Below are positions 11,092 through 42,100 of a DNA stretch of 62,097 nt, in pieces; position 1 is the first letter of the stretch, and every line of letters begins with the position of its first letter. The stretch is from Candidatus Parcubacteria bacterium (GTDB lineage: Bacteria; Patescibacteriota; Patescibacteriia; CAIXNZ01): NCBI GenBank assembly GCA_026395685.1, contig JAPLYG010000019.1, positions 1-62,097 on the forward strand. Reading direction: 5' to 3'. Below the pieces are notes generated by a model that saw nothing but the letters and a program-made list of their open reading frames with translations, was not told where the DNA came from and searched no databases. The translations under genes were made by a program, and so were the position numbers.

Positions 11092-12114
<1,023 letters not shown>

Positions 12115-12229: not shown

Positions 12230-12736
12230 TTATTTCTTTCTGATAATTTTTCCAAAGATGCAGAGATCTAAAAATCTGTTGCCGATTTTGCCGGCTTTTG
12301 ACAAAGTGCCTTCGCACAAAAAACCGCATTTATTTAAAACCGCTATTTCATTTGCATTCTGGGAAGCTGTTATGGCTTGGATTCGATCACACTTATATTT
12401 TTTTTCTAATAAACTGATTAACACCTGATGGCTGTGCAGTCCATACCCCTGCCCCCGCTGACTGGGAATAATTGTCGCGCCTATTTCAAAAGAATTGAAT
12501 CGGGGCTCAGGCGCCCAGTATGCATAACCTAATAATTCCCCGCTCATTTTATTTTTTACTAAATAATATTTAACTTTGGTTTTGCTGAATTTATGTTTAA
12601 AAGCCAAAAATGGACGGCCATAATGCGGCTGAAAATTACCAACGATTTTTTTATCACTGATTAAAAAATACAAATCCTTTAAATTGCGATTGGTAACAGA
12701 CACCAGCTTGATTTTTTTATTATTGACTTGTGACAT
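12230..12736 (-). CDS. GNAT family N-acetyltransferase (RimJ/RimL-like)
   Basis: 168 aa. Acetyl-CoA motif QRGQGYG, C-terminal N..A....K.GF..EG. Confidence 0.7.
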   Translation of the reverse strand: MSQVNNKKIKLVSVTNRNLKDLYFLISDKKIVGNFQPHYGRPFLAFKHKFSKTKVKYYLVKNKMSGELLGYAYWAPEPRFNSFEIGATIIPSQRGQGYGLHSHQVLISLLEKKYKCDRIQAITASQNANEIAVLNKCGFLCEGTLSKAGKIGNRFLDLCIFGKIIRKK

Positions 12737-12741
12737 ACATT

Positions 12742-16571: not shown

Positions 16572-16605
16572 ATTAAAACGCCCGTGGAAACTTGTCCACG
16601 GGCGT
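16572..16605 (-). terminator. Strong intrinsic terminator closing the island
   Basis: ACGCCCGUGGA-CAAGUU-UCCACGGGCGU followed by UUUUAAUU on the minus strand. Confidence 0.7.
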
Positions 16606-16613
16606 CGGTGCTC

Positions 16614-17714
16614 CTATTTACCGAGCAGGCTTAGTATTTTCTGTCTCTTGTCGTGTTCCTCCTTGGTGATTTCGGTTTTCTCAACGATTAGCTTTGCATA
16701 GGGCATAAGCGTCATTGATAACCACCAGCGTAGGGACTCCTCCTCGAAAGAAAGAATTTTAAATCCCCAGAACTGATTTCCGTCTTGCCAGCTAACGAGG
16801 GGCAAGATGTAAAAATCAAGCGTGGTATCACGCCAGCCCCAAAGCTGATTCAGTACGATTGGTATTGTACCCTTCTCGTAGATGAAAACCTCAAACAAAG
16901 GCATTTCTACCCATTTGTTTATGATGGGGAGTTCACCAATCAGATTTGGAATCGGTCGGTGCATGTCTGCGAGAAAGAAATGACCACCGGGTTTCAAAAC
17001 CTTTAAAACCCCTTCAAAGACGCTCTTAGGGTCATTGATTCCGCCGATGCCGCACATTTGAGTCACGACATCAAAGGATTCAGCTTTGAAACGACTGTTC
17101 TCGCCGTCAGCGCTTTTACCGTCAGGCGAATACAAATCCATGGCGTTGCCTTTAACAAAGTCTGTCAGGATGTTGGCAAACAGATACGGTCGTTTTTCAG
17201 CCACGCCCAGCATGCTACGGTTGTAATCCAGCCCAGTAAGACAAACATTAAGACGCTTGGTGATGTTACGGCTGGCTAGAATCTTGCAGATTTCCAACAA
17301 GGTAAGACCAGTGCCGGTGCAAAGGTCCAGCACAGTGATCTCATTTGGCTGATTTTTCTGACAATAAGCCGCTACAGCTTCACCAGCCTTACGACGCCAG
17401 ATGGTATCCTGCCCTCTGGTTGTAAAATGATGTTTTCTGTCATACCCCAGGGCTTCTCGAGTATAAACTCTTTCGACTTCTTCGATATCCAGACTGCCAG
17501 GTTGATCTTTTCGAGGTAGTAAAAAAGTTTTCACTCCCATGGCTAAAAGGAATAGAACAAATTCCAGTAGCTTGAATTTCAGATAGCCTGACTTGAATTC
17601 CACATCTATCATAAGATGATCTGGGAAATAAAGCGCCAGATCCTCAGAAGTAATTCCAAGTTCTTTGGCCTTTTCTTCACTGATATCCAAAAGCTTCTTG
17701 TAAATATACTGCAT
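16614..17714 (-). CDS. Class I SAM-dependent methyltransferase with an N-terminal extension
   Basis: 366 aa. Motif I is VLDLCTGTGL, followed by LKPGGHFFLADM. RBS GGGAGGA. Confidence 0.7.
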   Translation of the reverse strand: MQYIYKKLLDISEEKAKELGITSEDLALYFPDHLMIDVEFKSGYLKFKLLEFVLFLLAMGVKTFLLPRKDQPGSLDIEEVERVYTREALGYDRKHHFTTRGQDTIWRRKAGEAVAAYCQKNQPNEITVLDLCTGTGLTLLEICKILASRNITKRLNVCLTGLDYNRSMLGVAEKRPYLFANILTDFVKGNAMDLYSPDGKSADGENSRFKAESFDVVTQMCGIGGINDPKSVFEGVLKVLKPGGHFFLADMHRPIPNLIGELPIINKWVEMPLFEVFIYEKGTIPIVLNQLWGWRDTTLDFYILPLVSWQDGNQFWGFKILSFEEESLRWWLSMTLMPYAKLIVEKTEITKEEHDKRQKILSLLGK

Positions 17715-17851
17715 CGTTTTGTCCTCCCTATCCAGAAAATTTCTTGACTTTGGTTTCTGTTGCGAACACCTATGAAAACCCGAGTGGGCAAGAAAAGATT
17801 ATTTAAAGGTACGGAAAAATACACCTAAAAACTGAACCTATGTTAGGTTGA

Positions 17852-17880
17852 ATCATAACATCGGTTTTATGGTCTGTCAA
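17852..17880 (-). promoter_or_regulatory. Sigma70-type promoter (TTGACA-N17-TATGAT)
   Basis: The minus strand reads TTGACAGACCATAAAACCGATGTTATGAT. A leader of about 130 nt precedes the methyltransferase ATG. Confidence 0.5.
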
Positions 17881-17985
17881 GGGGGGTGGCAATGGCCACT
17901 TGACAAGAACATAAAAATATTACTTAATATCATTTTTAATTGAAAAAGCGCAGAGAAACGGAGTTCCGCTTGTCTGCGCTGAAAG

Positions 17986-18267
17986 TTACTGCCACCTCAG
18001 AGTATCGCCTGTATAAAGTAAAAGGAGCCGAAGCTCGAGTTCTGACAATTTTTTCTGGGCACGCAATTTTTGGGTTTCAGATGAAAGATCATCAGGATCT
18101 ATTTCTTCTTCAGTTTCGACCAACATATCCAGACATTGGTCGGAAAAAAGGAAAGTAATCAACTGCAAATCTTTATCCGGCTCAACAGGCTGGAGATTAT
18201 ATTGCTTCATCAATGCCTGGCTGACCAGTACTATGCGGGTCTGATTAAACGCTTTAATGATTTGCAT
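17986..18267 (-). CDS. Small acidic hypothetical protein (93 aa)
   Basis: Strong RBS AAAGGAGGAAAATC-ATG, its own TTGACG-N17-TAAGGT promoter, and its own terminator (about 17940-17975). Confidence 0.55.
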   Translation of the reverse strand: MQIIKAFNQTRIVLVSQALMKQYNLQPVEPDKDLQLITFLFSDQCLDMLVETEEEIDPDDLSSETQKLRAQKKLSELELRLLLLYTGDTLRWQ

Positions 18268-18370
18268 GATTTTCCTCCTTTACCTGACTCAATCTTACTG
18301 ACTTCTTACCTTAACAAGAAATGATTATCTCGTCAAGAGGCTGTATTATCAATAACTAGCAGGAGGAATT

Positions 18371-18437
18371 AAAATAAAACACGTCGCTCGCGAGCGACGT
18401 GTTAAAAAAAAAGCGCTCCGACATAATCGAAACGCTT
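18371..18437 (-). terminator. Two tandem terminator hairpins
   Basis: AAGCGUUUCGA...UCGGAGCGCUU followed by U9, then the perfect palindrome ACACGTCGCTCGCGAGCGACGTGT followed by UUUAUUUU. Confidence 0.6.
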
Positions 18438-18452
18438 GCAATCAAGAATATT

Positions 18453-18659
18453 TTAAATTCGCGATAAATAATTTTCTAAAATCGCCGGATCACTCTGCAG
18501 CATGTCGCAAATCATGATTTTTACGACCTCTTTTTTGGTACTCTCCTGCAATGGCAATCGGTTTACTGTTTGAAAAAGCACCTCGATTAAACGAGGCAAT
18601 GTTTCAATCTTTTCGCTTTCAATAAGCAACGGTATGTGCAAAGTATCATCATCTGCCAT
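18453..18659 (-). CDS. Small hypothetical protein (68 aa), start overlaps the M20 gene stop
   Basis: The ATG at 18659 overlaps the end of the M20 ORF by 11 nt, which suggests translational coupling. No recognisable motif. Confidence 0.45.
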   Translation of the reverse strand: MADDDTLHIPLLIESEKIETLPRLIEVLFQTVNRLPLQESTKKEVVKIMICDMLQSDPAILENYLSRI

Positions 18660-19803
18660 TACTATCCTCCGTTTCTGCTGTCAGAACCTTGAGATAAAAA
18701 TCAGTCAACAATTCCAGATCTTTGATTTCCAGATATTCATCCAGGCAATGCGGATTTCGTCCCGGTGAACCAATGACAACGGCGTTAATGCCTCTTTCCA
18801 CTAAAATATTGGCGTCAGAACCGCCAAAAGTATGAACAAATTGAGAGGTTACGCCCTGTTCTCCGAATTTTTGCTGGAGAAATCTTATAAAAGGATCATC
18901 TTGATCATAGAAATAACCAGTTGCCTTTCTCTCTGACGAAAAGCTAATTTCAGCACCCGTTTCAAGAGCCAGTTCACTGAATATTGCCTTGATGCTCTCC
19001 AATAAACTGAGATCCACTTCTATTTTAGGACCCCTGACTTCGCCATGAATAATGGCAAAATCAGGTACTGTATTACGCAAGGTCAAATTTTCAGCAATCT
19101 CGACCAGCTCTTTATCAGCCAGGCCTTTCAAGCCCACCACTGCAAAAGAAAGGTTCAGCCTGGTAAACTCATCAACCTTGCCCAAAGTCAGGCTATTAGC
19201 TGCCTTCAATAACAGATTGAAAGCGTTAAGGCCCTCCTCGCACTTTGACACATGAGCGCGCCGCCCTTTTATTGTGATATCAAAATTATAGTTAAAGGGC
19301 GCACTTTGGATAATTGAACCGTGGGCAAAAGGCGCATCAGCGATAATGCATTTTTTACTGTGAATCAATGAAAGATCCAGATTCTTGGCGCCCAAAGAGA
19401 TTGCTTCTTCTTCGCGGGTAAAGACAATTTCTACTGTCCGCATTTTCAAACAATTCTCTTTAATTAAAGTCAGAGCTTCTAAAATTGCGGCAATGGAATC
19501 CTTGTTGTCAGCTCCCAAAATAGTAGTGCCATCAGATCGAATCCGTCCGCCTGATATTACAGGCGTAATTTTTTCGCCTGGTCCTTTTGGGACAGTATCC
19601 ATATGAGCGCATAACATAATCGGCTCACCATAACCTGAGCGTCTGGCAATCAAATTGCCATAGGCATCATTGGTCACCTGAAAATTCAGATACTGCAGAT
19701 AGTGTATCAGGGCTTCGCTGATAAGCTTTTCAGAGCCGGCAGGGCTTTCAATTTGCGCTAATTCGCAAAAAGTCCTTACCAGCCGATCCTTGTCAATATT
19801 CAT
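18649..19803 (-). CDS. M20 family metallopeptidase/amidohydrolase (PepT/ArgE-like)
   Basis: 384 aa. CAHMDTV, GADNKDSIAAILEA, and the REEE acidic pair are typical of M20. Confidence 0.75.
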   Translation of the reverse strand: MNIDKDRLVRTFCELAQIESPAGSEKLISEALIHYLQYLNFQVTNDAYGNLIARRSGYGEPIMLCAHMDTVPKGPGEKITPVISGGRIRSDGTTILGADNKDSIAAILEALTLIKENCLKMRTVEIVFTREEEAISLGAKNLDLSLIHSKKCIIADAPFAHGSIIQSAPFNYNFDITIKGRRAHVSKCEEGLNAFNLLLKAANSLTLGKVDEFTRLNLSFAVVGLKGLADKELVEIAENLTLRNTVPDFAIIHGEVRGPKIEVDLSLLESIKAIFSELALETGAEISFSSERKATGYFYDQDDPFIRFLQQKFGEQGVTSQFVHTFGGSDANILVERGINAVVIGSPGRNPHCLDEYLEIKDLELLTDFYLKVLTAETEDSNGR

Positions 19804-19868
19804 AGTTTTTACCCCCTTTTGAACTGCTATTTAAACAATTACAAGTTTTTCTTGTTTCTGTCAACCAG

Positions 19869-20717
19869 CTACTGCCATTTCACGCTTTTCACTTTATCCA
19901 TGAATTTTTTAACCCTGGCTGTTTGCAGAGGATATTCCCAGGGGAAAATATTATGATAATCTTTTTTCTTTGGATTTGGCTGGCCCTTGAAATAACTGCC
20001 GACAATAAAAGCATTTACCTGATACTTTTCCATATTTTCAGGGGTAATACCGCTGCCAAGAAGAACAGGGATTTTGCCGGCTGATTTTCTTGCATCCTGA
20101 ACATCTTTTTCAGTCGGAGCATCACCTGTCCATTTGCCGGTAATAATAATTGCATCGGCTTTTTCTTTAATTGCCGCCTGCACTGCTTTTGTTAAGGGTC
20201 GCTTAATCAGATGCTTTGCATGTTTAACCTGGACATCGGCAAAAATCATAATATCTTCTGCTTTTATTTTTTTTCTAAAAGCGATTGCCTCTTTTGCTTT
20301 GGCTGAAAAAATACCATAATCGGTCTGCACTTTGTCAACAAAAACAGGGGTGCGGATAAACTGAAAGTTCGCCAGTTTTGCGATGGATAAAGCCGCTTCA
20401 TAATCATTCCATAAAACACAAAGTCCTAATGGCTTTTTCGTTAATCCCCTGGCCTCCAGACAAAGCTTTGTTAACTGCGGGAGGGTAGATGTTTTTGCCT
20501 TTTCATAATGAGGAATGTCATAATTATTTTCAATCATAATGGCATCAACTCCCCCAGAAACTAAAGCCCTGAAATCTGCCAAAAACTTTTTTTCCACCTT
20601 TTCAAGCCCGGGAAAACCTTCGTAGCCCAAAAGAGGCGCGCAATGAACCATGCCGATTACCAGCGGATATTTTTTCTTGAATAATTTAAACTTTAAGTTT
20701 GTCATAATTTTTATCAA
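19869..20717 (-). CDS. BtpA/SgcQ family TIM-barrel protein
   Basis: 282 aa. The VIGMVHCAPLLGYEGFPG ... IMIENNYDIPH pattern is characteristic of the BtpA family. Confidence 0.65.
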   Translation of the reverse strand: MIKIMTNLKFKLFKKKYPLVIGMVHCAPLLGYEGFPGLEKVEKKFLADFRALVSGGVDAIMIENNYDIPHYEKAKTSTLPQLTKLCLEARGLTKKPLGLCVLWNDYEAALSIAKLANFQFIRTPVFVDKVQTDYGIFSAKAKEAIAFRKKIKAEDIMIFADVQVKHAKHLIKRPLTKAVQAAIKEKADAIIITGKWTGDAPTEKDVQDARKSAGKIPVLLGSGITPENMEKYQVNAFIVGSYFKGQPNPKKKDYHNIFPWEYPLQTARVKKFMDKVKSVKWQ

Positions 20718-21513
20718 TATATTTTAAAATTTCCATAACTCCCCGCGAATATTTTTCCTTAGCCACGTAATCAGCGATTTTCTTTACTTCTGGCTGGGCA
20801 TTGCCAACCGCATAAAAATAATCAATTTCCTTTAATGTTTTCAAATCAGCCAAATCATCGCCAATCATAATATAGTTATAATTTTTATAATATTTTTTTA
20901 TTCGCTGAAGAGCAATTCCCTTATTAATATTTCTGGGCCAAAAAACAAAATTGGAAAATGACTTGGGAATTTCAACATCAAGATTTAATTTATGCTGTAT
21001 AAAATAATCAGCCAGGAATTTCCCCAACTTTCGTATTAATTCCAAATCCCGCACGCCGTATCTGAAAACATGAATACTGCCGGTATATTTGCGAAACCTA
21101 TTAGCCATAATTATCAGCGGTATTTTTTTCAAATTACTGTCTTTTATCAGCTTAACAGTATCCCCAAAAACAAAGCGCCCGCTGATCTTTTTTTTCGCCA
21201 TAAAAAGCTTAACCAGCCGGGCAGTCAGCTTATTGACTGCCAGAGGATTTTTTTCCAAAAAAACTTTTTTAGCCTTAATATTTTTCTGGAAGAAAACTCC
21301 GTTTTCCAAAATAACCGGGCCATTTAATTTGAAATATTTATAAATAGCCTCGACGTCATGCGCGGAACGATTTGAATTTAAGCCAAATAAAAAACCTTTG
21401 TGCGACATATCTTTTATCACCGAAGGCAACAAAGCAGAATTCGGCTTCTGATTCGGCATGATCAGCGTACCGTCAATATCTAAAAAAATTATTGTTTTTT
21501 GCAGTTTTTTCAT
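20686..21513 (-). CDS. HAD-IIB (Cof-like) phosphatase
   Basis: Start refined to MKKLQKTIIFLDIDGTL (ATG at 21513). DxDGT motif and C-terminal GDDLAD. The longer track ORF runs through a terminator hairpin. Confidence 0.7.
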   Translation of the reverse strand: MKKLQKTIIFLDIDGTLIMPNQKPNSALLPSVIKDMSHKGFLFGLNSNRSAHDVEAIYKYFKLNGPVILENGVFFQKNIKAKKVFLEKNPLAVNKLTARLVKLFMAKKKISGRFVFGDTVKLIKDSNLKKIPLIIMANRFRKYTGSIHVFRYGVRDLELIRKLGKFLADYFIQHKLNLDVEIPKSFSNFVFWPRNINKGIALQRIKKYYKNYNYIMIGDDLADLKTLKEIDYFYAVGNAQPEVKKIADYVAKEKYSRGVMEILKYIDKNYDKLKV

Positions 21514-21550
21514 AAAAAAATAGGGAGATATAGACAATCCTATATCTCCC
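21514..21550 (-). terminator. Intrinsic terminator/attenuator
   Basis: GGGAGAUAUAG-GAUUGU-CUAUAUCUCCC followed by UAUUUUUUU on the minus strand, immediately before the HAD ATG. Confidence 0.6.
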
Positions 21551-21556
21551 ATACTA

Positions 21557-22462
21557 TCAAAATTTGAGAATATTTTCAAGATATTTTTGCGCTTCTTCAA
21601 ACGCCTGCTTAGCCTTCTTCGGATCAGATTGGATTCTGAAACGAGCTGATAAAAAGCACTGCAGTAACCTGCCCAGGGAAAAAATATTTTCCGCAACCTC
21701 TTGAGGCAAGGAAAGTAGCCCGGCCACATCAGTCACGGCATAGTTCCTGATTATTTCATAACCTTCCTGCCAACAAGGCAAGTCATATACCTTTGCCACT
21801 CCGGCAAAACATGCCAAGCCCATAATTGGAATACCCAAGACCTCGTCGTGGGGATCGGAATATTTAATTCCCTGCTCAGTAAGGTAGACATCGTCGGGAG
21901 TAAAATCCCAGTTTGAGAAACAGCAGGACGCAACTTTCGGCAAACCCATGGCTTTTTCCAGCTGGGTTATTTGTATCTGCCCCTGGGGATCAAACGCCGA
22001 ACCAATGTATTTATAATACTGCTCCTCAACTTTTTTAATCACTGACAGCACTGACTCTCTGCCCTCAGGACCCTGCTTTAAACTTTGCCCGTATACCCTG
22101 CTTAGATCCTGAATCAATTTCCGATACATCGAGATCGGATCTGACGACTTTTTTATCTTAGTGATAAAGTCTTGCCCGCAATACTCCATCAAAATCCAGG
22201 AAACTTTCGGATCCAAACGATAAGCAATCAATCCGGGAATAAACCAATTCAGCCCCAAGGCGATCAATTTATTATACCCCCGGATATTCATGGCAATTTC
22301 CTTGATTGATTTTTCCGTAGTGCCGAGCTTTAGCACCTGCAAAACACCCTGCGGATTTCTGGCCAGATAGACCGCATCGCAGACATTGCCGAATACAAAC
22401 TTGTTTACGACTTCAAGGTCATTTTCTTTACATACGCGTTGCAGCAAGGCTTTGGAATCCAT
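21557..22462 (-). CDS. Putative kinase-fold (APH/choline-kinase-like) phosphotransferase
   Basis: Start refined to MDSKALL (AAGGAG lies 10 nt upstream). VLKLG lysine region and a degenerate catalytic-loop-like NWDFTPDDV...YSDP. Weak assignment. Confidence 0.4.
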   Translation of the reverse strand: MDSKALLQRVCKENDLEVVNKFVFGNVCDAVYLARNPQGVLQVLKLGTTEKSIKEIAMNIRGYNKLIALGLNWFIPGLIAYRLDPKVSWILMEYCGQDFITKIKKSSDPISMYRKLIQDLSRVYGQSLKQGPEGRESVLSVIKKVEEQYYKYIGSAFDPQGQIQITQLEKAMGLPKVASCCFSNWDFTPDDVYLTEQGIKYSDPHDEVLGIPIMGLACFAGVAKVYDLPCWQEGYEIIRNYAVTDVAGLLSLPQEVAENIFSLGRLLQCFLSARFRIQSDPKKAKQAFEEAQKYLENILKF

Positions 22463-22466
22463 GGGA

Positions 22467-23063
22467 TTATTTCTCCTTCTCAACCAGCAGAGTCAGACAG
22501 CCCAACTTTTTGGCAGTCTCAAGGTTGGGAGCTTCATCATCAATAAATACAACTCTTTGTCCCAGATTTAACGCAGGCTGCAACACGTCAAAAGCTCTTT
22601 TATCAGGCTTTTGATGGTAACAGATTTCCCTCATCCCATAAATAGCTGAGAATAAATCCCTGATGCCCAGTGATCTTAAAATCAGATCAGCGTATTCAGA
22701 CGGATTATTGGTTAAGACAATTTTTTTGCCCACCAACGAAGAAATAATCCTTCTTAAATAAGGAGACTCTGTAATCCCATAATCCTGGGGGCAAATTCTC
22801 AGATAAGTTTCCCGGATAAAAATCTCAGGATCAATACCTTCTGCCTTAAGCGCAATCAGCGTGTATTTTGTGTTATGCAGGCTAAGAAGTTGTTTTCTGA
22901 TTTTTACAGCTTCTTGCAGGCTGACGCCATAGCAATCAGCAATAAAGCTGATCATCAAAGAAACAATCGCTGTTTCAATGCCTCTCATGGAATACAAAGT
23001 CCCGTCGTTATCAAAAACCCATAAATCAGCCTGCAATTCTTTAATGTTTTCCGGAATCATCAT
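22467..23063 (-). CDS. HAD superfamily hydrolase (pyrimidine 5'-nucleotidase-like subfamily IA)
   Basis: 198 aa. VFDNDGTLY (DxDxT), LTNN, FIDDEAPN. RBS AAGGAGG. Confidence 0.7.
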   Translation of the reverse strand: MMIPENIKELQADLWVFDNDGTLYSMRGIETAIVSLMISFIADCYGVSLQEAVKIRKQLLSLHNTKYTLIALKAEGIDPEIFIRETYLRICPQDYGITESPYLRRIISSLVGKKIVLTNNPSEYADLILRSLGIRDLFSAIYGMREICYHQKPDKRAFDVLQPALNLGQRVVFIDDEAPNLETAKKLGCLTLLVEKEK

Positions 23064-23091
23064 TACCTCCTTTGCTGTGGATTATCGGCTG

Positions 23092-23129
23092 AAAAAAAGT
23101 AAGGGTGATGATTTACAGTCACCACCCTT
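23092..23129 (-). terminator. Hairpin plus U-run between the TrpD-like and HAD genes
   Basis: AAGGGUGGUGA-CUGUAAA-UCAUCACCCUU followed by ACUUUUUUU on the minus strand. Confidence 0.5.
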
Positions 23130-23134
23130 AACGT

Positions 23135-24301
23135 TTAAGATTTCTTCGGCAGCATTTTACTGACTGCCAGGACTTTCTGGTAGGGTGCGCCGCTGAGGTA
23201 AACCTCTTTAGCACGGTTATAGCAACTTCTCATATCTCGCGAAAAGTCAGCCAGATAGAAAAGCAGAGCCGCATTGGCAAGGACCATCTCAACTGCCGGT
23301 CCTGAAACTTCTTGCTTCAAAATTGCCAGGGAAAATTCCCCTTTGGAAATACCACTGGGCGGAGAAATCAAGGCTGCATCGACTGGCTTAATGCCAAAGT
23401 CTTCCGCAAAAATGGTGTAGTTTTTGATTTCACCGTCAATGATCTCTGCAACTTGAGTGCCACCCGGACAAATTGAAACTTCATCCATGCCACGGCAACT
23501 CTCACGATCAGCAAAGCCTCTGACAAAAAGACCATGTTCCAGCTGGGTAACGCCTCTACTGTTTAATATCAGGTAGGCTTGGGCAACCACATTTACTGGA
23601 ATCAAATGGTTTACTCCGACAATTCGGCGAGTAAGAAGGTGCGGCGCCAACGGATTGGTGATCGGGCCGATAATATCGTTCATGTGCGGCAGCCTGGCTA
23701 CCTCGTGAGTCTGCAGATGAATGCGTTTGTAACGCACATCCAAAGCTTCAGTATAGCCAAAGCCTTCAGTTTCAACACAGCGTTCAGTGTCATTCTTATG
23801 GGCAAAGAGATCAATGCCCAGCATAGAAATGAAATCTGAACTGCCGTGCTTGCCCGCATCAGCATTTGCCGGAGAGCCATGTTTGCAGATGGGAATCCCG
23901 GCGGCCGCTGCAATAAATGCGGAAATCGTGCTGACATTGGCAGTGACGATAAGATCACCGCCCATTCCGCAATTATCCATGGCATACGGTACCCGCGGAT
24001 TCAAAAATCCAAATTCCGAGAGAGCAATATCATGCTCAAAAATCGCCGCGCAAATTCCGGCAATCTGCTCAGCTGCTGTTTTTGGCAAACTATGGCTATG
24101 CCATGACGAAGCATGGTCAAACTCTTGCCATTCATAAGTTGCTTTGCCATGAAGCGCACAGAGAGCAGCAATGCTTTGAATCTGAGCAAGGCTATTGCCC
24201 TTACAACCTTCTAAGGCATAAACGCCTAACTCGAAGGCCTCATAATAGGTCAAAGGTATATTTTGATACGCATGATCCTTGAGTATGTGCCTGATATCCA
24301 T
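23135..24301 (-). CDS. Anthranilate phosphoribosyltransferase (TrpD) family paralog, atypical
   Basis: Start refined to MDIRHIL (GGAGGG RBS). GMGGD..TANVST, KHG with an insertion then GSSD, and IIGPITNP all match TrpD/GT-family-3 motifs, with deviations. Confidence 0.75.
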   Translation of the reverse strand: MDIRHILKDHAYQNIPLTYYEAFELGVYALEGCKGNSLAQIQSIAALCALHGKATYEWQEFDHASSWHSHSLPKTAAEQIAGICAAIFEHDIALSEFGFLNPRVPYAMDNCGMGGDLIVTANVSTISAFIAAAAGIPICKHGSPANADAGKHGSSDFISMLGIDLFAHKNDTERCVETEGFGYTEALDVRYKRIHLQTHEVARLPHMNDIIGPITNPLAPHLLTRRIVGVNHLIPVNVVAQAYLILNSRGVTQLEHGLFVRGFADRESCRGMDEVSICPGGTQVAEIIDGEIKNYTIFAEDFGIKPVDAALISPPSGISKGEFSLAILKQEVSGPAVEMVLANAALLFYLADFSRDMRSCYNRAKEVYLSGAPYQKVLAVSKMLPKKS

Positions 24302-24552
24302 CTTCTTTCCCTCCTTTGAGAAAGTGTTAAACAAAAATTTTGAGAACCTTTATCACTAAGGGATAGTCTTTCAAATCCCGAAAAAAGCCGTCGCTACTGC
24401 CCGAAAACAGGCCCGTAGCTTCAAGCGTTATTATTTTTTAAGGTACTTTTAAGGTCTTCTGACCTTAAGAATTTTGTCTTAAAACAATCATCTTAAAGTC
24501 ACAAGCGCTAATGACTCTTAAATTTATGCTATTTATCTGGCTTTGTCAACTA

Positions 24553-24835
24553 AATAAAAAACTCGTCCTTTTAGCACAATTAAAACATTGTGTTATAAGG
24601 ACGAGATTCTTAATCCCGCGATACCACCTTGATTGTCTGATAATTATCAGACCGCTTTTACTGACTCAGTTTCCCTTGCTCTAGCAAGGAACGACATCAG
24701 TTATCCTATGATTACGGAGGAAGCCGGGTTCGCACTTTTGCACAAACCACCTTTTACGGGTAAACGTAAGTACTTAGCCCCAACCCTCCGCTATGCGGAG
24801 GAACTAAGCGTAGGTTTTATAATTGTAAAGATATA
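24553..24835 (-). promoter_or_regulatory. T-box riboswitch leader (short Stem I, T-box sequence, antiterminator/terminator)
   Basis: The minus strand AAUCAAGGUGGUAUCGCG (24615-24636 region) matches 15 of 18 positions of the T-box consensus. Terminator CUCGUCCUU...AAGGACGAG plus U6 lies at 24553-24605, with alternative antiterminator pairings. A Stem I-like hairpin at 24773-24808 carries a UUGGG bulge. Confidence 0.8.
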
Positions 24836-24839
24836 TTTA

Positions 24840-24868
24840 TATAATATCATATTATTGAATACTGTCAA
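24840..24868 (-). promoter_or_regulatory. Sigma70-type promoter of the T-box leader
   Basis: The minus strand reads TTGACA (24868-24863)-N16-TATTAT. Confidence 0.5.
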
Positions 24869-24879
24869 ATTTTCCGGGT

Positions 24880-24909
24880 AAAAAAGGGACAAGCAAAGTT
24901 GCTTATCCC
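24880..24909 (-). terminator. Intrinsic terminator after the radical SAM gene
   Basis: GGGAUAAGCA-ACUU-UGCUUGUCCC followed by U6 on the minus strand. Confidence 0.65.
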
Positions 24910-24919
24910 AAAAGGTCAG

Positions 24920-26026
24920 TTAGACCTTGATAGAACATTTTCTGTACGGCTGTAATACGCACCCATGGCAGGATTTTGGAACCATTGCGCTCATTGGCGT
25001 GCCAGCCGGAATATTGAAACAATAAGGATCACTTGCCCGCGGACAGCCAGTGGCAAAGAAAGCCTCTCCCCGGCAACCCCCATGGCATTTTTCAAACTGG
25101 CGGCATTTACTGCAGGGGCCAACGATCCACTGTTTATAGCTCCGGATTGCGTGCAAAACAGGATGGGAAAGGATGTTAACAACATCATCGCAATAGATAT
25201 TGCCGACATCTATTCCGGCATGTCCCACGCAAGGCAGGACCTTGCCATCGACATTGATGTGCACTCCGGTTTCCACCAAAGTGCAGGTGTGATTGTAACT
25301 GGGCGGTGACATAGTCTGGGTCAGATATGACCTTTTTTTAGGAAAATTCTTTTGGTCATATGCCCGCAGCTGCTGATAAAGTTCCTTAACTTCATCTAGC
25401 GGCGTATCATTCTCACAGCCGCGTAAAAAGGTTTTACTTGATTTGGCCATCTCAATAACCGGAGTAAAACCATGCTCACGGGCAAACTTGAAAACTTCAA
25501 AGATGCAACCGGCTGAAACCAACGGCCTCAGGATATTGACCTGAACATTCTGCTCGGCGCTTTTGGGCCAATACTTCAGCACATTCTTCCAGGCTTTACG
25601 TTGCTTTTTGAAAACACCGTCAACCCCGGCCAAGCTGTCCACCAGTTTTTCATGGCGGCTGGAAGTAGCCCTTAACTGCATTGCCAAGCTCACTTTGTGA
25701 TGCGCTAACGCCCGGCAAAAATCAGCATCAGCCAACTTTACGCCATTGGTTACCAAAATCACCTGGTGAAATTTCTTGGCAGCATAGCGGGTAATCGCAA
25801 CAATATCATGATGGATGGTTGGTTCCCCGCCCAACAAATAAATCTCCCCGAAATAAGGGGCAGTCTTATCAATCATCATTTTCATCTGCTCCAGGCTGAT
25901 GAAACGCTGAGAGTTTGATCCCTTTTCATAAAAGCACTGAGTGCATTTGATATTGCAGTAATCAATGATGTCAAATCCAACGCCGTAAAATATACGGTCA
26001 TGATATTTTTTTTCGCGGAATGGCAT
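24920..26026 (-). CDS. Radical SAM enzyme with C-terminal SPASM/twitch Cys-rich domain (no RRE)
   Basis: Start refined to MPFREKK (GGAGGG lies 7 nt upstream). CNIKCTQC cluster motif, GGEPT, and C-terminal CSKCRQFEKCHGGCRGEAF. Confidence 0.8.
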   Translation of the reverse strand: MPFREKKYHDRIFYGVGFDIIDYCNIKCTQCFYEKGSNSQRFISLEQMKMMIDKTAPYFGEIYLLGGEPTIHHDIVAITRYAAKKFHQVILVTNGVKLADADFCRALAHHKVSLAMQLRATSSRHEKLVDSLAGVDGVFKKQRKAWKNVLKYWPKSAEQNVQVNILRPLVSAGCIFEVFKFAREHGFTPVIEMAKSSKTFLRGCENDTPLDEVKELYQQLRAYDQKNFPKKRSYLTQTMSPPSYNHTCTLVETGVHINVDGKVLPCVGHAGIDVGNIYCDDVVNILSHPVLHAIRSYKQWIVGPCSKCRQFEKCHGGCRGEAFFATGCPRASDPYCFNIPAGTPMSAMVPKSCHGCVLQPYRKCSIKV

Positions 26027-26606
26027 GTTTTTTCCCTCCGGAATTACTGGTGCAGATTTTGTGTGCCTTGCCCAAAGACTGCGCGACAATACGATAATCA
26101 TAATTGGTGGTTGCCAACTGATTATTTTTTTCCAAGCGATAGCCCATATCTCTGACAGCATTTACAACCTGGCCGATGTAAAAATAATGGCTCGATTTTT
26201 TAGCGGCAAATTTAATGATTTGCTGCAAGCGGCATTCAAAAACAATCGGAGATTTTGCCAAACCAGGAACAGAGATGATCCTGGAAGGAAAAACATCCAA
26301 TTGCAATCGAGCTGCCTTATCAATTTTTCTGCCAGAATAAGTCCCGCAATAATCAATTGCTGCCAATAATTCCGGCGTCGGCAAATTGACAGTGAATTCT
26401 GCAGTTTCCGCAATTAGCTTTGCGGAATAACGACTCGGCCGAATGGACAAGCCAATAAGGGGCGGATTTTCGTTTACAACTCCTAGATAGCTTACAACGC
26501 AGATGTTGATGCCGCTGCCCGCTTGCTTATCAGCCGTCACGACCAGATAGGGACAAAGCACTAAGCCTTGCATTGTGGCTAATTTCAGACTAATTTCCTG
26601 CTTCAT
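25998..26606 (-). CDS. Flavin reductase-like (FMN-binding split barrel) protein
   Basis: 202 aa. The pattern ...VVSYLGVVNENPPLIGLSIRPSRYS...EFTVNLP... is typical of flavin reductase-like domains. Overlaps the radical SAM start by 29 nt. Confidence 0.65.
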   Translation of the reverse strand: MKQEISLKLATMQGLVLCPYLVVTADKQAGSGINICVVSYLGVVNENPPLIGLSIRPSRYSAKLIAETAEFTVNLPTPELLAAIDYCGTYSGRKIDKAARLQLDVFPSRIISVPGLAKSPIVFECRLQQIIKFAAKKSSHYFYIGQVVNAVRDMGYRLEKNNQLATTNYDYRIVAQSLGKAHKICTSNSGGKKHAIPRKKIS

Positions 26607-26656
26607 GGACTCTCCTTTTTGAGGCTAGATTATTATTGTCAAATTACCAATATTTC

Positions 26657-26686
26657 AGTATAGCACCTTAAAAAAAAATTTGTCAA
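26657..26686 (-). promoter_or_regulatory. Sigma70-type promoter (TTGACA-N18-TATACT, TGC extended -10)
   Basis: The minus strand reads TTGACAAATTTTTTTTTAAGGTGCTATACT, upstream of the flavin reductase gene. Confidence 0.45.
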
Positions 26687-26755
26687 TATTGATTGTCAAG
26701 GATCGGCTCTTGACATCTTTATATAAATACTGTAAGGTCATTATATCTGAAGTGC

Positions 26756-26830
26756 GGGCGCGTCGGTTAGCGGCCAAACCAACGGTCTCCAAAACCGTCA
26801 CCGTGGGTTCGAGTCCCACCGCGCCCGCCA
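26756..26830 (+). tRNA. tRNA-Trp (anticodon CCA), GC-rich, CCA end encoded, G73
   Basis: GGGCGCG TC GGTT AGCGGCCA AACC A ACGGT CTCCAAA ACCGT CACC GTGGG TTCGAGT CCCAC CGCGCCC G CCA folds as a canonical cloverleaf. Confidence 0.85.
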
Positions 26831-26886
26831 TTTCAAACCTGGTACCTTAATTTAAAAAACACCCTGCTCAATGAGCACAATTTCAA

Positions 26887-26915
26887 AAGAGACCACTCGG
26901 TCTCTTCTTTTTTTT
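26887..26915 (+). terminator. Intrinsic terminator for the tRNA-Trp unit
   Basis: AAGAGACC-ACTC-GGTCTCTT followed by CTTTTTTTT. Confidence 0.65.
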
Positions 26916-26949
26916 AAAAAAAAATAGGGATTCCTTTTGGAGAATCCCT
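26916..26949 (-). terminator. Intrinsic terminator after the CM-methyltransferase gene
   Basis: AGGGAUUC-UCCAAAAG-GAAUCCCU followed by AUUUUUUUUU on the minus strand. Confidence 0.6.
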
Positions 26950-26958
26950 AGCAATACT

Positions 26959-28092
26959 TTAAAAAGTTTTCGTGACTAGTACGGTAATATAAGAGCCGTA
27001 TGGCGAGTTTTCCAAACTTGTATCAATCTTGCCCATGTGAGCTTTAAGCTGGTCATTCAGAGTGTATTCTGGCAGTAAACCAGAAACAGTAGGAAAAGTA
27101 TTTATCCTGCTGATCACAAATTTTGGGGAAAATAAGTCTGTTACTTCATCCTGAGAATATGCTCTGGCATAAACCAAATAGCTCCTAGCGCCGTTTAATT
27201 TAACTTCCAGGCAATTTTTTGGCCGGTTAATAACAGCGTTTAAGCTGACTGGCCAGGGAATGAAAGGAAAATCATAGATCAAAGCTTCAGAATTATAAAA
27301 GGATAAAAAAGCTCCGCCATGGGGCTGCAAAACCCTTTCAATTTCCCGAATAACTCCCTTGATATCCCTGAAATCACTGGCTGTGCCAAGATTACAGACT
27401 ACCAAAGAAACTGATTCGTCTTTGAGCGGAATGCCATTTTCGAAATCAACAACTTCAAAGGAAATATTATGATTTTTACGATCCTCAGCATTCATCTGGG
27501 CAACTTCAATCATGGTCGGGCTAAGGTCATAGGCCTTAACCTGTTTAAAGCGCTTTGCCAAGAAAAAACTCATCAAGCCGGTAGCGCAACCAAGGTCAAC
27601 TGCCAGCTGATTTGGCAAATGATTAAAGCTTTCAAGCAAACATTTTTGCTCATAGGCCTGATAGGACCTCAAAGCAAAACCTGCTTTATCATGATAGCGT
27701 TCATCATAGTTAAGAGCGAACGCGGCAGTCAGCTCCAGCAAGGTTTGCTTTTTGGCAGCATACCAGGCATCATCCATTTCTTCAGATCTTTTCGGTTTTG
27801 GCCTGGTTTCATCCTGAAGCTGCTGCAATTGTATTTTGCAGGATTCATCAATAATAAAATAGAGCAAGGAAGCTGCAAAATTGGCATTAATACCATATTT
27901 TTCAGCTAACTCCATTATTTTATTTACCCGATCGCTTTCAGTAGAAAGACGAACTATCTTAACAGCATCAATTTCTTTGCTTTCCGCAACTTGCCGTACC
28001 AATGAAAATCTGCGTTCCAAGACAGCCAATAACATTTCATCAACTTGGGCAATCAAAGGTCCCAATTCCGAAAGAGTTAGCGATCTCGGCAT
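26959..28092 (-). CDS. Chorismate mutase (AroQ-like) domain fused to a class I SAM methyltransferase
   Basis: Start refined to MPRSLTL (GGGGAG lies 7 nt upstream). The N-terminus L..LI..VDEMLL.VLERRF.L...V...K resembles AroQ CM. The MT motif I is AVDLGCATGL. Confidence 0.65.
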   Translation of the reverse strand: MPRSLTLSELGPLIAQVDEMLLAVLERRFSLVRQVAESKEIDAVKIVRLSTESDRVNKIMELAEKYGINANFAASLLYFIIDESCKIQLQQLQDETRPKPKRSEEMDDAWYAAKKQTLLELTAAFALNYDERYHDKAGFALRSYQAYEQKCLLESFNHLPNQLAVDLGCATGLMSFFLAKRFKQVKAYDLSPTMIEVAQMNAEDRKNHNISFEVVDFENGIPLKDESVSLVVCNLGTASDFRDIKGVIREIERVLQPHGGAFLSFYNSEALIYDFPFIPWPVSLNAVINRPKNCLEVKLNGARSYLVYARAYSQDEVTDLFSPKFVISRINTFPTVSGLLPEYTLNDQLKAHMGKIDTSLENSPYGSYITVLVTKTF

Positions 28093-28108
28093 GTCCATAC
28101 TCCCCTCA

Positions 28109-28134
28109 ATAAAAAGGGGCTCTAATCGAGCCCC
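28109..28134 (-). terminator. Hairpin plus U-run enclosing the trpS2 stop codon
   Basis: GGGGCUC-GAUUA-GAGCCCC followed by UUUUU on the minus strand. The TAG stop of TrpRS2 lies in the loop. Confidence 0.55.
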
Positions 28135-29108
28135 ATTGCTTGTCTGACCTGATGCAAGGTCGGCCGGGCGCTGACTTTTGCCCTTTTGGCGCACTCGACC
28201 AACACGTCCCGAACATAGTCGTCGTTATAGCTGTAGTATTTTTCCTGAATCGGCGCCAGCAAAGCGACCACTTTTTCAGCGGCCATCTGCTTGCATTCCA
28301 CGCAAGACAAAGTTCCGGCTTTACATCCCTGCATAATGGCAATGATCTCCTGATCAGTGCACAACAGGTTATGCAAGGGGTAGATGCTGCCGCAGTTATT
28401 GAGCGGGTCACCCGGATCATTGCGGTGGATTCTGTTGGTGTCGGTTAAACCGCTTTTCACTTTTTCCCTGATGGTCGTTGCATCATCCAGCAAATCAATG
28501 CCGTTGTTATGCGACTTTCCCATCTTGCTTCCATCCAGACCGGGTAAACGAACTGCTTCGTTTTCCAGCGTCTTGGGAATGGCGAAAATGTTTTCATAAA
28601 GATGATTGAAGCGGTGGGCAAACGCGCGAGCCATTTCCACATGCGGAATCTGGTCGCTGCCCACGGGCACAATCGTAGCCCTGTGGATGAGAATATCCGA
28701 GGCCATCAAAACCGGATAAGTCAGCAGTCCGTGATTAACATTATCCGGATTTTCACGAACCTTTTCTTTGAAAGTCGTGCAGCGTTCCAATTCACCAAGC
28801 TGGACAACCATGCCCAAAAGCAGGGTCAATTCCGCCACTTCGGGCAAAGACGACTGATAATAAACCACGGACCGATTAGGGTCAATACCAGTGGCCAAGA
28901 ATGTTTTCACAATCGGCAACCGATTTTGCCTTAATACATCCGGGTCAGGGTGCGTAGTTAAAGTGTGATAATCAGCGACAAAGAAAAAGCACTGATGCTT
29001 TTCCTGCAGCGGGAAAAAATTCCGAATTGCTCCGAAATAGTTGCCCAAATGCAGTTTTCCCGTCGCGCGGATTCCCGACACTACAACCGGCAAACCTTCA
29101 TCGTTCAT
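28122..29108 (-). CDS. trpS: Tryptophanyl-tRNA synthetase, second divergent copy with a C-x22-C-x6-C-x2-C motif
   Basis: 328 aa. HIGH-type motif KLHLGN, KMGKS, and the TrpRS core (VGSDQIPH). NNC-x22-C-x6-C-x2-C in the C-terminal domain. More GC-rich than trpS at 11092. RBS AAGGAG. Confidence 0.85.
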   Translation of the reverse strand: MNDEGLPVVVSGIRATGKLHLGNYFGAIRNFFPLQEKHQCFFFVADYHTLTTHPDPDVLRQNRLPIVKTFLATGIDPNRSVVYYQSSLPEVAELTLLLGMVVQLGELERCTTFKEKVRENPDNVNHGLLTYPVLMASDILIHRATIVPVGSDQIPHVEMARAFAHRFNHLYENIFAIPKTLENEAVRLPGLDGSKMGKSHNNGIDLLDDATTIREKVKSGLTDTNRIHRNDPGDPLNNCGSIYPLHNLLCTDQEIIAIMQGCKAGTLSCVECKQMAAEKVVALLAPIQEKYYSYNDDYVRDVLVECAKRAKVSARPTLHQVRQAMGLD

Positions 29109-29370
29109 ATCCTAACTCCTTTTGTGGGGGGCTGAAAAAAACAAATATCCCTATAATCTATATAAAACTCCGACAATCAGTAAAAGCCGAAGATTTTTCA
29201 AGGTACTGATATTACAACTTATCATAAACATTATATATATGTCAAACTATTATCTAGTTGCCCAAGATGCCTCAAAATCCATTCTTTTATGCCCGTATTA
29301 AGTGTTTGATTTTTTTGGCAAAATAATCTATACTAACCATATAATTTTTTATTACATTTATTCTATATTT

Positions 29371-41322: not shown

Positions 41323-41537
41323 AACTTTATGTTAATAATTATACTTTTATCTTACCAAATTTACGCATTTACCACAAACAAGCACTGCCCTTGATTTATT
41401 TACGAATTCAGGATAAAATGTTTATATATTTGTAAAAAATAATTTTTCGTTGATAGGTATGGGAGTTTGTTACGTTATACGCTAAAAGATTAACGAAACG
41501 ATTGTCGATACCGAAAAACGATTAACGAAATTACCAC

Positions 41538-41661
41538 GGGGGCGTGGTGAATCCAGCCTCTCGCGAGAGGCTGGATGAAGTGGTCCAGCTGCTCACGAGC
41601 AGCTGGATAAATATCACAGAGGTCTCCACCCAGCCTTTCGCGAAGGGCTGGGTCCAAAACC
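41538..41661 (+). pseudogene. Duplicated tRNA-Trp 5' half (about nt 1-39) interrupted by three GC-rich palindromic mini-elements
   Basis: After removing three 22-28-nt inserts, the sequence equals 41934-41972 of the intact tRNA: GGGGGCGTGGTGAA|..|GTGGT|..|ATCACAGAGGTCTCCA|..|AAACC. Confidence 0.75.
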
Positions 41662-41683
41662 GCATACTATTAAATTAAACATT

Positions 41684-41929: not shown

Positions 41930-41933
41930 TTCT

Positions 41934-42004: not shown

Positions 42005-42100
42005 CTCGTAAAAAAAAGACTGTTTAATTATTGGCTTGTTTTCGTTAGACTAACCCTTCCGGATTGATTAATTAGGCATTTTATGATATGTTGTTAATAT

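Follow-up and report, generated by a model that had tools for sequence, protein, structure and literature searches.

In Firmicutes, a T-box(Trp) controls operons (trpS, the trp operon and, in Bacillus subtilis, rtpA-ycbK) whose products increase the supply of tryptophan (Trp); the leader combines a UGG specifier and a T-box sequence with a UGGN bulge and competing terminator and antiterminator helices. In the canonical trp pathway, TrpD, with its anthranilate phosphoribosyltransferase (AnPRT) fold and its phosphoribosyl pyrophosphate (PRPP)/Mg motifs, is combined with the TrpF, TrpC and TrpA barrels. A second tryptophanyl-tRNA synthetase (TrpRS) is found next to tailoring-type enzymes in the indolmycin and chuangxinmycin clusters, amino-acid decarboxylase loci of lactic acid bacteria (tyrS-tdcA-tyrP and hisS-hdcA) contain a synthetase paralog, and a tRNA, a synthetase and a radical-SAM (S-adenosylmethionine) enzyme are clustered in pylTSBCD. 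The locus compared with these systems here is a gene block in a 62,097-nucleotide stretch of DNA from a Candidatus Parcubacteria bacterium (contig JAPLYG010000019.1; hereafter the window). It encodes a TrpD-like phosphoribosyltransferase (23135–24301) behind a promoter and a Trp T-box leader (24552–24868), a BtpA/SgcQ-family TIM barrel (19869–20705) and a second TrpRS, TrpRS2 (28122–29108); coordinates refer to the window, and to its minus strand unless marked (+).

The leader shares with its Firmicute counterparts the UGG specifier, the T-box sequence, the UGGN bulge, the competing helices and a position before genes that would raise Trp supply, and an EamA-family transporter is the first gene of several related T-box operons of the Candidate Phyla Radiation (CPR), as in B. 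subtilis, where the EamA-type gene ycbK follows rtpA. It differs in its host, a member of the Patescibacteria, in its Stem I, a short hairpin without a distal platform, in Rfam scores of 38–52 bits against 93 bits, and in its targets: the regulated TrpD-like, BtpA, haloacid dehalogenase (HAD) and M20 genes are part of no described Trp regulon. As in the canonical pathway, a phosphoribosyltransferase with the AnPRT fold and PRPP/Mg motifs is followed by a phosphate-binding barrel; however, the TrpD-like protein lacks the anthranilate-binding Asn and Arg and falls short of the trpD cutoff, BtpA belongs to none of the TrpA, TrpC and TrpF families, and no trpE, G, F, C, B or A was found among the window open reading frames (ORFs) scanned or the recurrent neighbours in related loci. 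The indolmycin and chuangxinmycin clusters resemble the block in their second TrpRS beside tailoring-type enzymes, whereas the genes described here are widespread in reduced genomes, sit beside a TrpRS of either of two clades, are under Trp-responsive control and include no detected homologs of the pathway enzymes of those clusters. The decarboxylase loci have a parallel in 12 related loci, in which a group-II pyridoxal phosphate (PLP) decarboxylase-family gene shares an operon with TrpRS and tRNA-Trp, but this gene is absent from the window and no antiporter was seen. Unlike pylTSBCD, the block combines an ordinary TrpRS with a CCA anticodon rather than a stop-codon reader and contains no PylC or PylD homologs. 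In the literature searched, no system of this composition was found, as the initial annotation of the window had supposed, and T-box riboswitches were not mentioned together with the CPR.

The block is probably a copy of a conserved Trp-responsive neighbourhood common to CPR bacteria and DPANN archaea, in which a PRPP-dependent, non-canonical route would make or recover tryptophan or a precursor. The TrpD-like/BtpA pair is conserved in two domains of life, stands behind a UGG T-box or a TrpR-like gene in bacteria and, in both domains, shows physical linkage with the genes for TrpRS and tRNA-Trp. Its expression would be expected when tRNA-Trp is uncharged or Trp is low, and since known T-box and TrpR regulons serve Trp supply, the Trp-specific control of the pair suggests that it does so as well. 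The view that the block is centred on tryptophan, taken in the initial annotation, is borne out and reinforced. Related loci were collected by a scan with the TrpD-like protein in one genome per species, which yielded 69 loci (labelled L001 etc.), each readable over ±10 kb around the match. Because many of the genomes are metagenome bins, their taxon labels may be incorrect; non-CPR labels are carried by L012, L017, L028, L029, L034, L044 and L051.

The T-box model of Rfam (RF00230) matched 24594–24820 (E = 3.7e-9), and E-values ranged from 5e-7 to 2e-10 over the three loci tested. A promoter (TTGACA-16-TATTAT) is predicted at 24868–24841. Direct reading of the sequence placed the specifier UGG, followed by G, at 24782–24780, the T-box core GGUGGUAUCGCG at 24628–24617 and the conserved T-box sequence with its UGGN bulge, AAGGUGGUAUCGCGGGA, at 24630–24614. 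The terminator arms (24606–24597 and 24570–24562) are followed by a T-run (U7), and the antiterminator and terminator helices are mutually exclusive. A motif search detected a T-box core with a U-run upstream of the TrpD-like gene in about 25 CPR loci, and a profile built from 25 aligned leaders recovered the leader class in 30 distinct loci including the window (nhmmer E = 5e-52 for the window leader), always on the same strand as, and upstream of, the TrpD-like operon. Compensatory changes were found in 31 of the 41 consensus pairs of these 25 leaders (RNAalifold), affecting Stem II, the IIA/B region, Stem III and the terminator. The homologous leaders and the covariation identify the T-box noted in the initial annotation as real, although it lies below the gathering score of the Rfam model.

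A short hairpin (6–9 bp) is followed by UGGG, which immediately precedes the 3' strand of the helix in lower Stem I and is present in 24 of the 25 aligned leaders, the remaining row being cut at its 5' end. The base preceding UGG varies (U, C or G), which excludes NUG codons; a GGG codon would put a variable base after it, whereas UGG plus a purine fits the T-box rule that the specifier codon is followed by a purine. The codon matches the Trp context provided by trpS, tRNA-Trp and the TrpR-like gene. The antiterminator bulge reads UGGU or UGGC and fits G73 of the tRNA-Trp genes. Stem II and the IIA/B region are conserved in the class, but the Stem I insert comprises 44 nt against 70 model positions, and a full-length Stem I with a distal platform is lacking; the low score is probably due to this marked shortening relative to the Rfam consensus. 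Judged by its sequence, the leader would represent a T-box subclass with truncated Stem I in Patescibacteria. In six loci without T-box, a 94-residue Trp_repressor-family gene lies directly upstream of the TrpD-like gene (PF01371, 60 bits; TIGR01321, 49 bits), so that two unrelated Trp-sensing devices are associated with the same gene pair. As a side observation, the T-box terminator of the window is separated from the TrpD-like start by about 250 nt (24302–24552), and the T-box core lies 327 nt before this start as opposed to 112–170 nt in related loci. The intervening stretch holds a second promoter-like site (24549–24521) and two hairpins and may be an extra regulatory layer.

The TrpD-like gene (PF00591, 116 bits) was assigned an ATG start at 24301; a version starting at TTG gave no exact-sequence database match. 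Hundreds of homologs share 62–70% identity with its product, and the named ones belong to Patescibacteria (for example Paceibacteria, Nomurabacteria and Nealsonbacteria). Among the loci, identity amounted to 57–70% in most CPR lineages sampled, 43–53% in most DPANN lineages and 35% in the two most divergent archaea. The AlphaFold model (pLDDT 84) retrieved AnPRTs as all of its top 50 PDB matches in Foldseek (TM 0.8–0.89 on target, 18–24% identity). The PRPP/Mg motifs are kept (GxGGD, NxST, KHG, GSxD, DE), with CGMGGD, NVST, KHG, GSSD and MDEVS invariant, and PRPP chemistry is therefore the likely activity by sequence. The acceptor side is remodelled: KHGN(R/K) is replaced by KHGSP, and R-T-x-F-N-x-LGPLTNP by LPHMNDIIGPITNP, both invariant in 20 sequences. 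From these replacements we conclude that the predicted acceptor is not anthranilate. A role as a nucleic-acid binder of the TrpD2/YbiB type was rejected, since the protein is acidic (median isoelectric point about 6) and AnPRTs alone make up the top 50 structural matches.

BtpA was assigned to its family with 176 bits (cutoffs: 30 for PF03437 and 153 for TIGR00259). To our knowledge, the BtpA/SgcQ family has no established enzymatic function. A PDB sequence search gave no significant match, but the AlphaFold2 model (pLDDT 90) matched phosphate-binding TIM barrels in Foldseek, with TrpA as the best fold match (E = 3e-9, TM about 0.6, 13% identity), followed by KGPDC, HisF, TenI/ThiE, PcrB, TrpF and RPE. 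Profile matches among 39 BtpA family members were weak (9 to Trp_syntA, 14 to PcrB).

The neighbourhood was found in about 70 species-level genomes, which cover many CPR lineages as well as DPANN archaea (Woesearchaeota, Nanoarchaeota, Aenigmatarchaeota, Nanohaloarchaeota, Micrarchaeota and Parvarchaeota). TrpD-like and BtpA genes are adjacent or nearby in 60 of 68 loci, as determined by tblastn of the window proteins and clustering of the locus ORFs. The remaining block genes are optional add-ons that each recur in a subset of the loci: a fusion of a chorismate mutase-like domain to a methyltransferase (CM-MT) in 12, an HAD-IA phosphatase in 11, an HAD-IIB phosphatase in seven, a kinase-like protein in four to five, an M20 peptidase/deacylase in five, and a radical-SAM enzyme in four to five, two of which also contain the flavin reductase. 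The neighbourhood is a mosaic between genomes, and the block of the window is one such mosaic. Almost its entire gene order recurs in L078 (TrpRS2 and CM-MT, an antisense tRNA-Trp, flavin reductase and radical SAM, then the T-box with TrpD-like and, further on, BtpA) and, minus the radical-SAM unit, in L077; synteny also extends to L014. The initial annotation had held that a block conserved with host-like composition in close relatives would be ordinary. Conservation in relatives is indeed observed, but the block is not ordinary for this reason, because its conserved core has no assigned function.

Recurrent neighbours that have no copy in the window include a PfkB kinase (14 loci), an inosine-uridine (IU)-nucleoside hydrolase (seven loci, sometimes replacing BtpA) and a second M20 family member (eight loci). 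The first gene of the T-box operon elsewhere is an EamA transporter (five loci) or a low-molecular-weight (LMW) phosphatase (five loci), and further neighbours comprise an AstE/AspA-type deacylase, a GNAT protein and a class-I glutamine amidotransferase (L039, L045). The last was rejected as a TrpG candidate, since the enzymes of these two T-box operons scored 34–48 bits with TrpG models as opposed to 155 bits with a generic amidotransferase model; no trp biosynthesis genes were found among the recurrent neighbours in the roughly 70 loci, nor trp biosynthesis Pfam families in any of the 47 window ORFs scanned (10–12 smaller ORFs were left out), in agreement with the absence of trp genes reported in the initial annotation. 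A HisC-like aminotransferase is found in four loci (beside TrpRS in L028), and a ScyB-like tryptophan dehydrogenase (318 bits) and an aminotransferase lie directly behind the T-box in L069. The presence of such genes, together with EamA transporters and M20/AstE-type deacylases, in the T-box operons further argues for a role of the pair in Trp supply. The group-II PLP decarboxylase-family gene mentioned above (MfnA/HDC-like, about 135 bits, fold-type I) occurs in L013, L016, L024, L027–L030, L032, L035, L036, L045 and L048. Regarding the phylogenetic range, L051 (3888–8607, on a 55% GC contig labelled Bdellovibrionales) carries the pair near an ORF with an N-terminus like that of canonical TrpD (see below), beyond which lies a LexA-like ORF, and L044, labelled Micavibrio, carries the pair as well; the pair may extend to predatory bacteria, or these bins may be mislabelled.

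A TrpRS gene lies within 10 kb of the TrpD-like gene in 32 of 69 loci, and tRNA-Trp within the same distance in 17 of 60 loci, as well as in L077 and L078; no other tRNA comes near this figure. With a genome size of about 1 Mb, chance alone would be expected to produce such linkage in about one locus in 50. TrpD-like, BtpA and TrpRS form an overlapping operon in L075 and L076, the archaeal locus L058 shows the order tRNA-Trp, TrpRS, TrpD-like, BtpA, and tRNA-Trp is followed by TrpD-like and BtpA in L053 and L068. The cluster-adjacent TrpRS genes fall into two bacterial clades, each of which fills this position in different genomes. The window contains both: TrpRS1 (11092–12111, 4.5 kb beyond the block) belongs to clade A and is 66–67% identical to the cluster-adjacent TrpRS of L011, L026 and L037, and TrpRS2 belongs to clade B. 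By sequence, both qualify as TrpRS (TIGR00233, 266 and 309 bits, cutoff 177), and both keep the catalytic motifs and the indole-binding Asp, with HLGH, KMSKS and SQAAD in TrpRS1 and HLGN, YPVLMASDIL and KMGKS in TrpRS2. Described initially as divergent, TrpRS2 is instead the more canonical of the two, with the higher trpS score and a YPVLMAxDIL pocket motif, which we take to be the canonical bacterial Trp pocket. Its closest taxon-named relatives are all CPR, most matches carrying no taxon name, and the order TrpRS2, CM-MT recurs in L077, L078, L010 and L039.

Two tRNA-Trp(CCA) genes are likewise present in the window (ARAGORN, Rfam), which, with the profile matches to both TrpRS, confirms the duplications listed in the initial annotation. 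The first (26756–26830, +) represents a GC-rich subtype with G73 and an encoded CCA, followed by a terminator at 26887–26906 (+). It had been considered a private tRNA of the block. Its location on the opposite strand and its own terminator were verified, but the type is conserved beside the cluster in other genomes, being 76–80% identical to the cluster-linked tRNA-Trp of L013, L014, L028, L029 and L032, and an antisense tRNA-Trp after CM-MT also exists in L077 and L078. The odd copy is the second one (41934–42005, +), which has G73 but no encoded CCA and falls outside the cluster-linked subtype. The cumulative GC skew changes direction at 41000–43000, the site of this second copy, which could be a replication landmark or a rearrangement point. 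In L029, ARAGORN reported a tRNA with a four-base anticodon (tacg) at 15109–15187 (-).

Behind the T-box, the TrpD-like gene is followed by an HAD-IA phosphatase resembling pyrimidine 5'-nucleotidases (22467–23063), which occupies the position directly after TrpD-like in 11 loci, a protein without family assignment (21557–22462), an HAD-IIB (Cof-type) phosphatase (20686–21513) with homologs in L011, L026 and L049 among others, BtpA, and a PepT-like M20 peptidase/deacylase (18649–19803), which follows or flanks BtpA in L013, L016, L028 and L029 (Pfam/NCBIfam). The gene at 21557–22462 had been reported to encode a kinase-fold protein. The gene is there, but its product matched nothing in Pfam, NCBIfam or the PDB, and the profile hints are weak (Fructosamin_kin, E 0.03; kinase N-lobe, E about 0.4), so that the kinase-like fold is a possibility; homologs occupy the same position in L011, L026 and L062 and lie elsewhere in the locus in L036.

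If the pair serves Trp supply, the system would operate as follows. The anticodon of uncharged tRNA-Trp would pair with UGG in the truncated Stem I, and the UGGU bulge of the antiterminator would pair with the free 3' end of this tRNA (G73-CCA). Formation of the terminator at 24562–24606 would then be prevented, allowing read-through into TrpD-like, HAD-IA, the kinase-like gene, HAD-IIB, BtpA and M20. The TrpD-like enzyme would use PRPP to ribosylate an aromatic or heterocyclic acceptor other than anthranilate, or catalyse the reverse reaction and release such a compound from a ribotide, and BtpA would process the ribose-phosphate part, like the related TrpF, TrpA and HisA/F barrels. Transaminase and dehydrogenase steps to Trp could follow where such genes are present, peptidases, deacylases and the transporter would act as parallel routes to Trp, and ribose for PRPP could come from the action of the nucleotidase, the nucleoside hydrolase and the PfkB kinase. 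The net result would be more tryptophan or its immediate precursor for the adjacent TrpRS. TrpRS2 with CM-MT, tRNA-Trp, and the flavin reductase with the radical-SAM enzyme would be optional modules of the neighbourhood. A more specific version is put forward tentatively, as possible but doubtful: the TrpD-like enzyme would couple PRPP to a scavenged aniline- or indole-type acceptor, BtpA and optional radical-SAM, phosphatase and kinase helpers would generate an intermediate of the indole-3-pyruvate type, and a Trp dehydrogenase or aminotransferase would aminate it to Trp, bypassing TrpE, G, F, C, A and B.

Several points weigh against a route to tryptophan. No known chemistry links a phosphoribosyltransferase and one TIM barrel to this amino acid. 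The TrpD-like protein scores 150.4 bits with TIGR01245, where the curated cutoff for trpD is 199, and an invariant Ser and Pro/His-Met-Asn-Asp replace the Asn and Arg that bind anthranilate in solved AnPRTs (Sulfolobus and M. tuberculosis). An ORF with an N-terminus resembling, by eye, that of a canonical TrpD is located 2.6 kb from the pair in L051, so that the pair is not a simple TrpD replacement. The similarity of BtpA to TrpA is remote and common to many phosphate-binding barrels, and the T-box scores lie below the RF00230 gathering score of 93 bits (window, 52.1; L004, 51.9; L022, 38.4). TrpRS2, CM-MT, tRNA-Trp and the radical-SAM unit are outside the T-box transcription unit in the window. 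Moreover, the loci were ascertained through similarity to the TrpD-like protein, so that the reverse frequency (trpS without the pair) is outside the data, and trpB or other trp genes elsewhere in pair-carrying genomes lie beyond the ±10 kb covered. Finally, many accessory genes (HAD nucleotidase, PfkB kinase, IU-nucleoside hydrolase) are typical of ribose or nucleoside salvage.

This last point leads to the main rival explanation, which we regard as unlikely: the pair would serve salvage or repair of ribose, nucleosides or ribosylamines, with the TrpD-like protein acting as a base or nucleotide phosphoribosyltransferase or pyrophosphorylase, while BtpA, the HADs, kinases and nucleoside hydrolases recycle ribose-phosphate, as in a pentose-bisphosphate-like pathway or in ribulosamine deglycation; the Trp link would then be regulatory or positional only. 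CPR and DPANN organisms depend on nucleotide salvage, a heterocyclic base would fit well into the altered acceptor pocket (His, Asn, Asp), and the pair is accompanied by the 5'-nucleotidase-like HAD-IA enzyme, PfkB, the IU-nucleoside hydrolase, the LMW phosphatase and a faint fructosamine-kinase match; LMW protein tyrosine phosphatase and FN3K-related enzymes act on ribulosamine phosphates. General ribose salvage is hard to square, however, with a pair that is operonic with trpS and tRNA-Trp in both domains and controlled by two unrelated Trp-specific regulators (UGG T-box and TrpR-like), and equally with a Trp dehydrogenase-like gene and aminotransferases within the same T-box operon.

A mobile, self-contained module for Trp charging and sensing, spread horizontally and bringing the second TrpRS and tRNA-Trp together with the cluster, is given a low probability. 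Consistent with such spread, the TrpD-like proteins, which cross the boundary between bacteria and archaea, are far more conserved (57–70%) than the adjacent TrpRS (31–67% identity), the neighbourhood is a mosaic, two TrpRS genes also occur in L028, L029 and L031, and the GC content at third codon positions (GC3) is raised somewhat in TrpRS2 (0.58), the radical-SAM gene (0.52) and the kinase-like gene (0.50). The composition of the block as a whole does not support it. The block genes have a mean GC of 42.4% and GC3 of 44.3%, as compared with 38.9% (standard deviation 5.1) and 40.5% (standard deviation 10.4) for the other window genes. The higher mean GC reported initially was thus reproduced, but the deviation is weak (less than one standard deviation), other window genes are far stronger outliers, and a GC-rich island was accordingly rejected. 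TrpD-like genes exceed their own locus in GC in 40 of 49 other loci, which makes the bias a property of the gene family. No integrase or transposase families were found in Pfam scans of the block proteins, and the block showed neither an integrase nor repeats nor boundaries flanked by tRNA genes. The closest taxon-named relatives of the TrpD-like protein, BtpA and TrpRS2 are all CPR, most matches being nameless, and the synteny with L078, L077 and L014 likewise speaks against a recently acquired foreign island, a form of the horizontal-acquisition reading offered in the initial annotation. Transfer history by itself would in any case not explain the gene roles. A much stronger compositional outlier is a trypsin-like peptidase gene (55867–57093, +), which, with 56% GC and a GC3 of 0.81 in a genome of about 38% GC, is probably foreign; high GC3 is also seen in the ORFs at 53336–53824 (+) and 2630–3259 (+) (0.69 and 0.61).

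A further explanation, which extends another reading of the initial annotation, is tRNA-dependent chemistry, in which one TrpRS/tRNA-Trp pair would provide a carrier on which Trp is built or modified (compare Sep-tRNA to Cys-tRNA) or from which Trp is donated. Duplicated TrpRS genes and a dedicated tRNA-Trp subtype are repeatedly found next to the cluster, 12 loci have the fold-type-I PLP enzyme in one operon with TrpRS and tRNA-Trp, and there is a superficial parallel to pylTSBCD. This explanation is nonetheless very unlikely, given the ordinary CCA anticodon (for which Pyl-like recoding was also rejected), the intact catalytic motifs and indole-binding Asp of both TrpRS, and the single TrpRS of most loci. 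In addition, the TrpD-like protein is acidic and its 50 best structural matches are AnPRTs, none of them the DNA-binding TrpD2, and the window contains no PEARL, CDPS, Fem or SepCysS-type enzyme and no copy of the PLP enzyme.

Nearly all features of the initial annotation were present where it had placed them, and the family profiles verified the chorismate mutase–methyltransferase fusion, the flavin reductase/radical-SAM pair, the two HAD phosphatases, BtpA, M20 and a further methyltransferase. Promoter- and terminator-like sites divide the block into at least six transcription units rather than a single operon. Between TrpRS2 and CM-MT, a hairpin with a T-run (28116–28134) may be terminator-like or attenuating. 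CM-MT (26959–28098) joins a CM_2-like domain (Pfam, 45 bits) to a class-I SAM methyltransferase (Methyltransf_25/11/31), and the family usually lies beside TrpRS in its 12 loci. The core residues are partly kept: compared with E. coli chorismate mutase, the domain appears to retain the equivalents of R28, K39, E52, S84 and Q88, but not those of R11', D48 and R51. A combination of chorismate mutase with a CmoA-like carboxy-SAM synthase was rejected, as there was no CmoA match and a weak match to CmoM. The flavin reductase-like gene (25998–26606, PF01613) has a promoter-like site at 26686–26657 and is paired with the radical-SAM gene in L013 and L078. The radical SAM/SPASM enzyme itself (24920–26026; Pfam/NCBIfam; terminator at 24909–24886) has homologs upstream of the TrpD-like operon in L078 (62% identity), L013, L037 and L014. 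In L078, an LCM-family methyltransferase gene (12442–13389, +) lies between the antisense tRNA-Trp and the flavin reductase, at a position that is intergenic in the window. Wyosine-like tRNA hypermodification by this combination of radical SAM enzyme, flavoprotein and LCM methyltransferase was rejected, since position 37 of the tRNA is A and no wyosine-type radical-SAM family was among the matches listed.

At the other end of the block, a 68-residue ORF, a 93-residue ORF and a UbiE-like methyltransferase gene (together 16614–18659; methyltransferase 16614–17714, Pfam/NCBIfam) form separate transcription units, closed by a terminator at 16577–16606, which, like the terminator after the opposite-strand tRNA-Trp, had been noticed before. 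The two tiny acidic ORFs and the methyltransferase are present as annotated but are not members of the conserved neighbourhood: among 78 related loci, neither small ORF has a homolog, which also led us to reject them as precursors of ribosomally synthesized and post-translationally modified peptides or as scaffold peptides, and the methyltransferase has one in L034 alone.

A biosynthetic cluster for a Trp- or anthranilate-derived or TrpRS-targeting metabolite, with TrpRS2 as self-resistance enzyme, the antibiotic-type reading of the initial annotation, would account for a second TrpRS among tailoring-type enzymes (radical SAM, methyltransferases, kinase-like protein, hydrolase) and for T-box induction, which would also follow TrpRS inhibition, but is extremely improbable in view of a distribution over about 70 species of genome-reduced symbionts in two domains, often with the bare pair and the sole TrpRS seen in the locus, of the two TrpRS clades that alternate in this position, of a TrpRS2 that has a canonical Trp pocket and CPR relatives and belongs to the ordinary cluster-adjacent TrpRS clade of many CPR, of TrpR-type control, which answers to Trp and not to an inhibitor, and of the lack of any scaffold-forming enzyme (nonribosomal peptide synthetase, polyketide synthase, indolmycin- or chuangxinmycin-type genes) among the genes found.

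Some genes in the vicinity of the block recur near the TrpD-like gene elsewhere. A 7TM-HisKA/GAF histidine kinase gene (14310–16538) adjoins the block and has homologs within 10 kb of TrpD-like in eight other loci (L006, L021, L023, L031, L034, L037, L038 and L046), sometimes with a response regulator alongside; it may provide a further regulatory link. Between TrpRS1 and the histidine kinase are genes for a second radical SAM/SPASM enzyme (12742–14100) and a GNAT protein (12230–12736). A PolX-family polymerase with a PHP domain (30844–32565) is encoded near the block, and its homologs adjoin TrpD-like in L001–L003 and L018; L021, L056 and L060 contain partial matches in the vicinity.

The block is thus best viewed as a Trp-supply regulon built on known regulatory logic, with a real chance that its core is a new pathway. 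Much of microbial diversity belongs to the Patescibacteria and DPANN archaea, which are regarded as host-dependent amino-acid auxotrophs. A core pair that exceeds the adjacent TrpRS in conservation and is coupled to two independent Trp sensors as well as to trpS and tRNA-Trp indicates a specific, selectable Trp-related capability that is missing from current metabolic reconstructions. If this reading is true, it would provide the first biochemical role for the BtpA/SgcQ family and for a new branch of the TrpD fold. Should the pair supply tryptophan by synthesis or recovery, the host needs of these organisms would change, and their cultivation could be helped by suggesting what to feed them.

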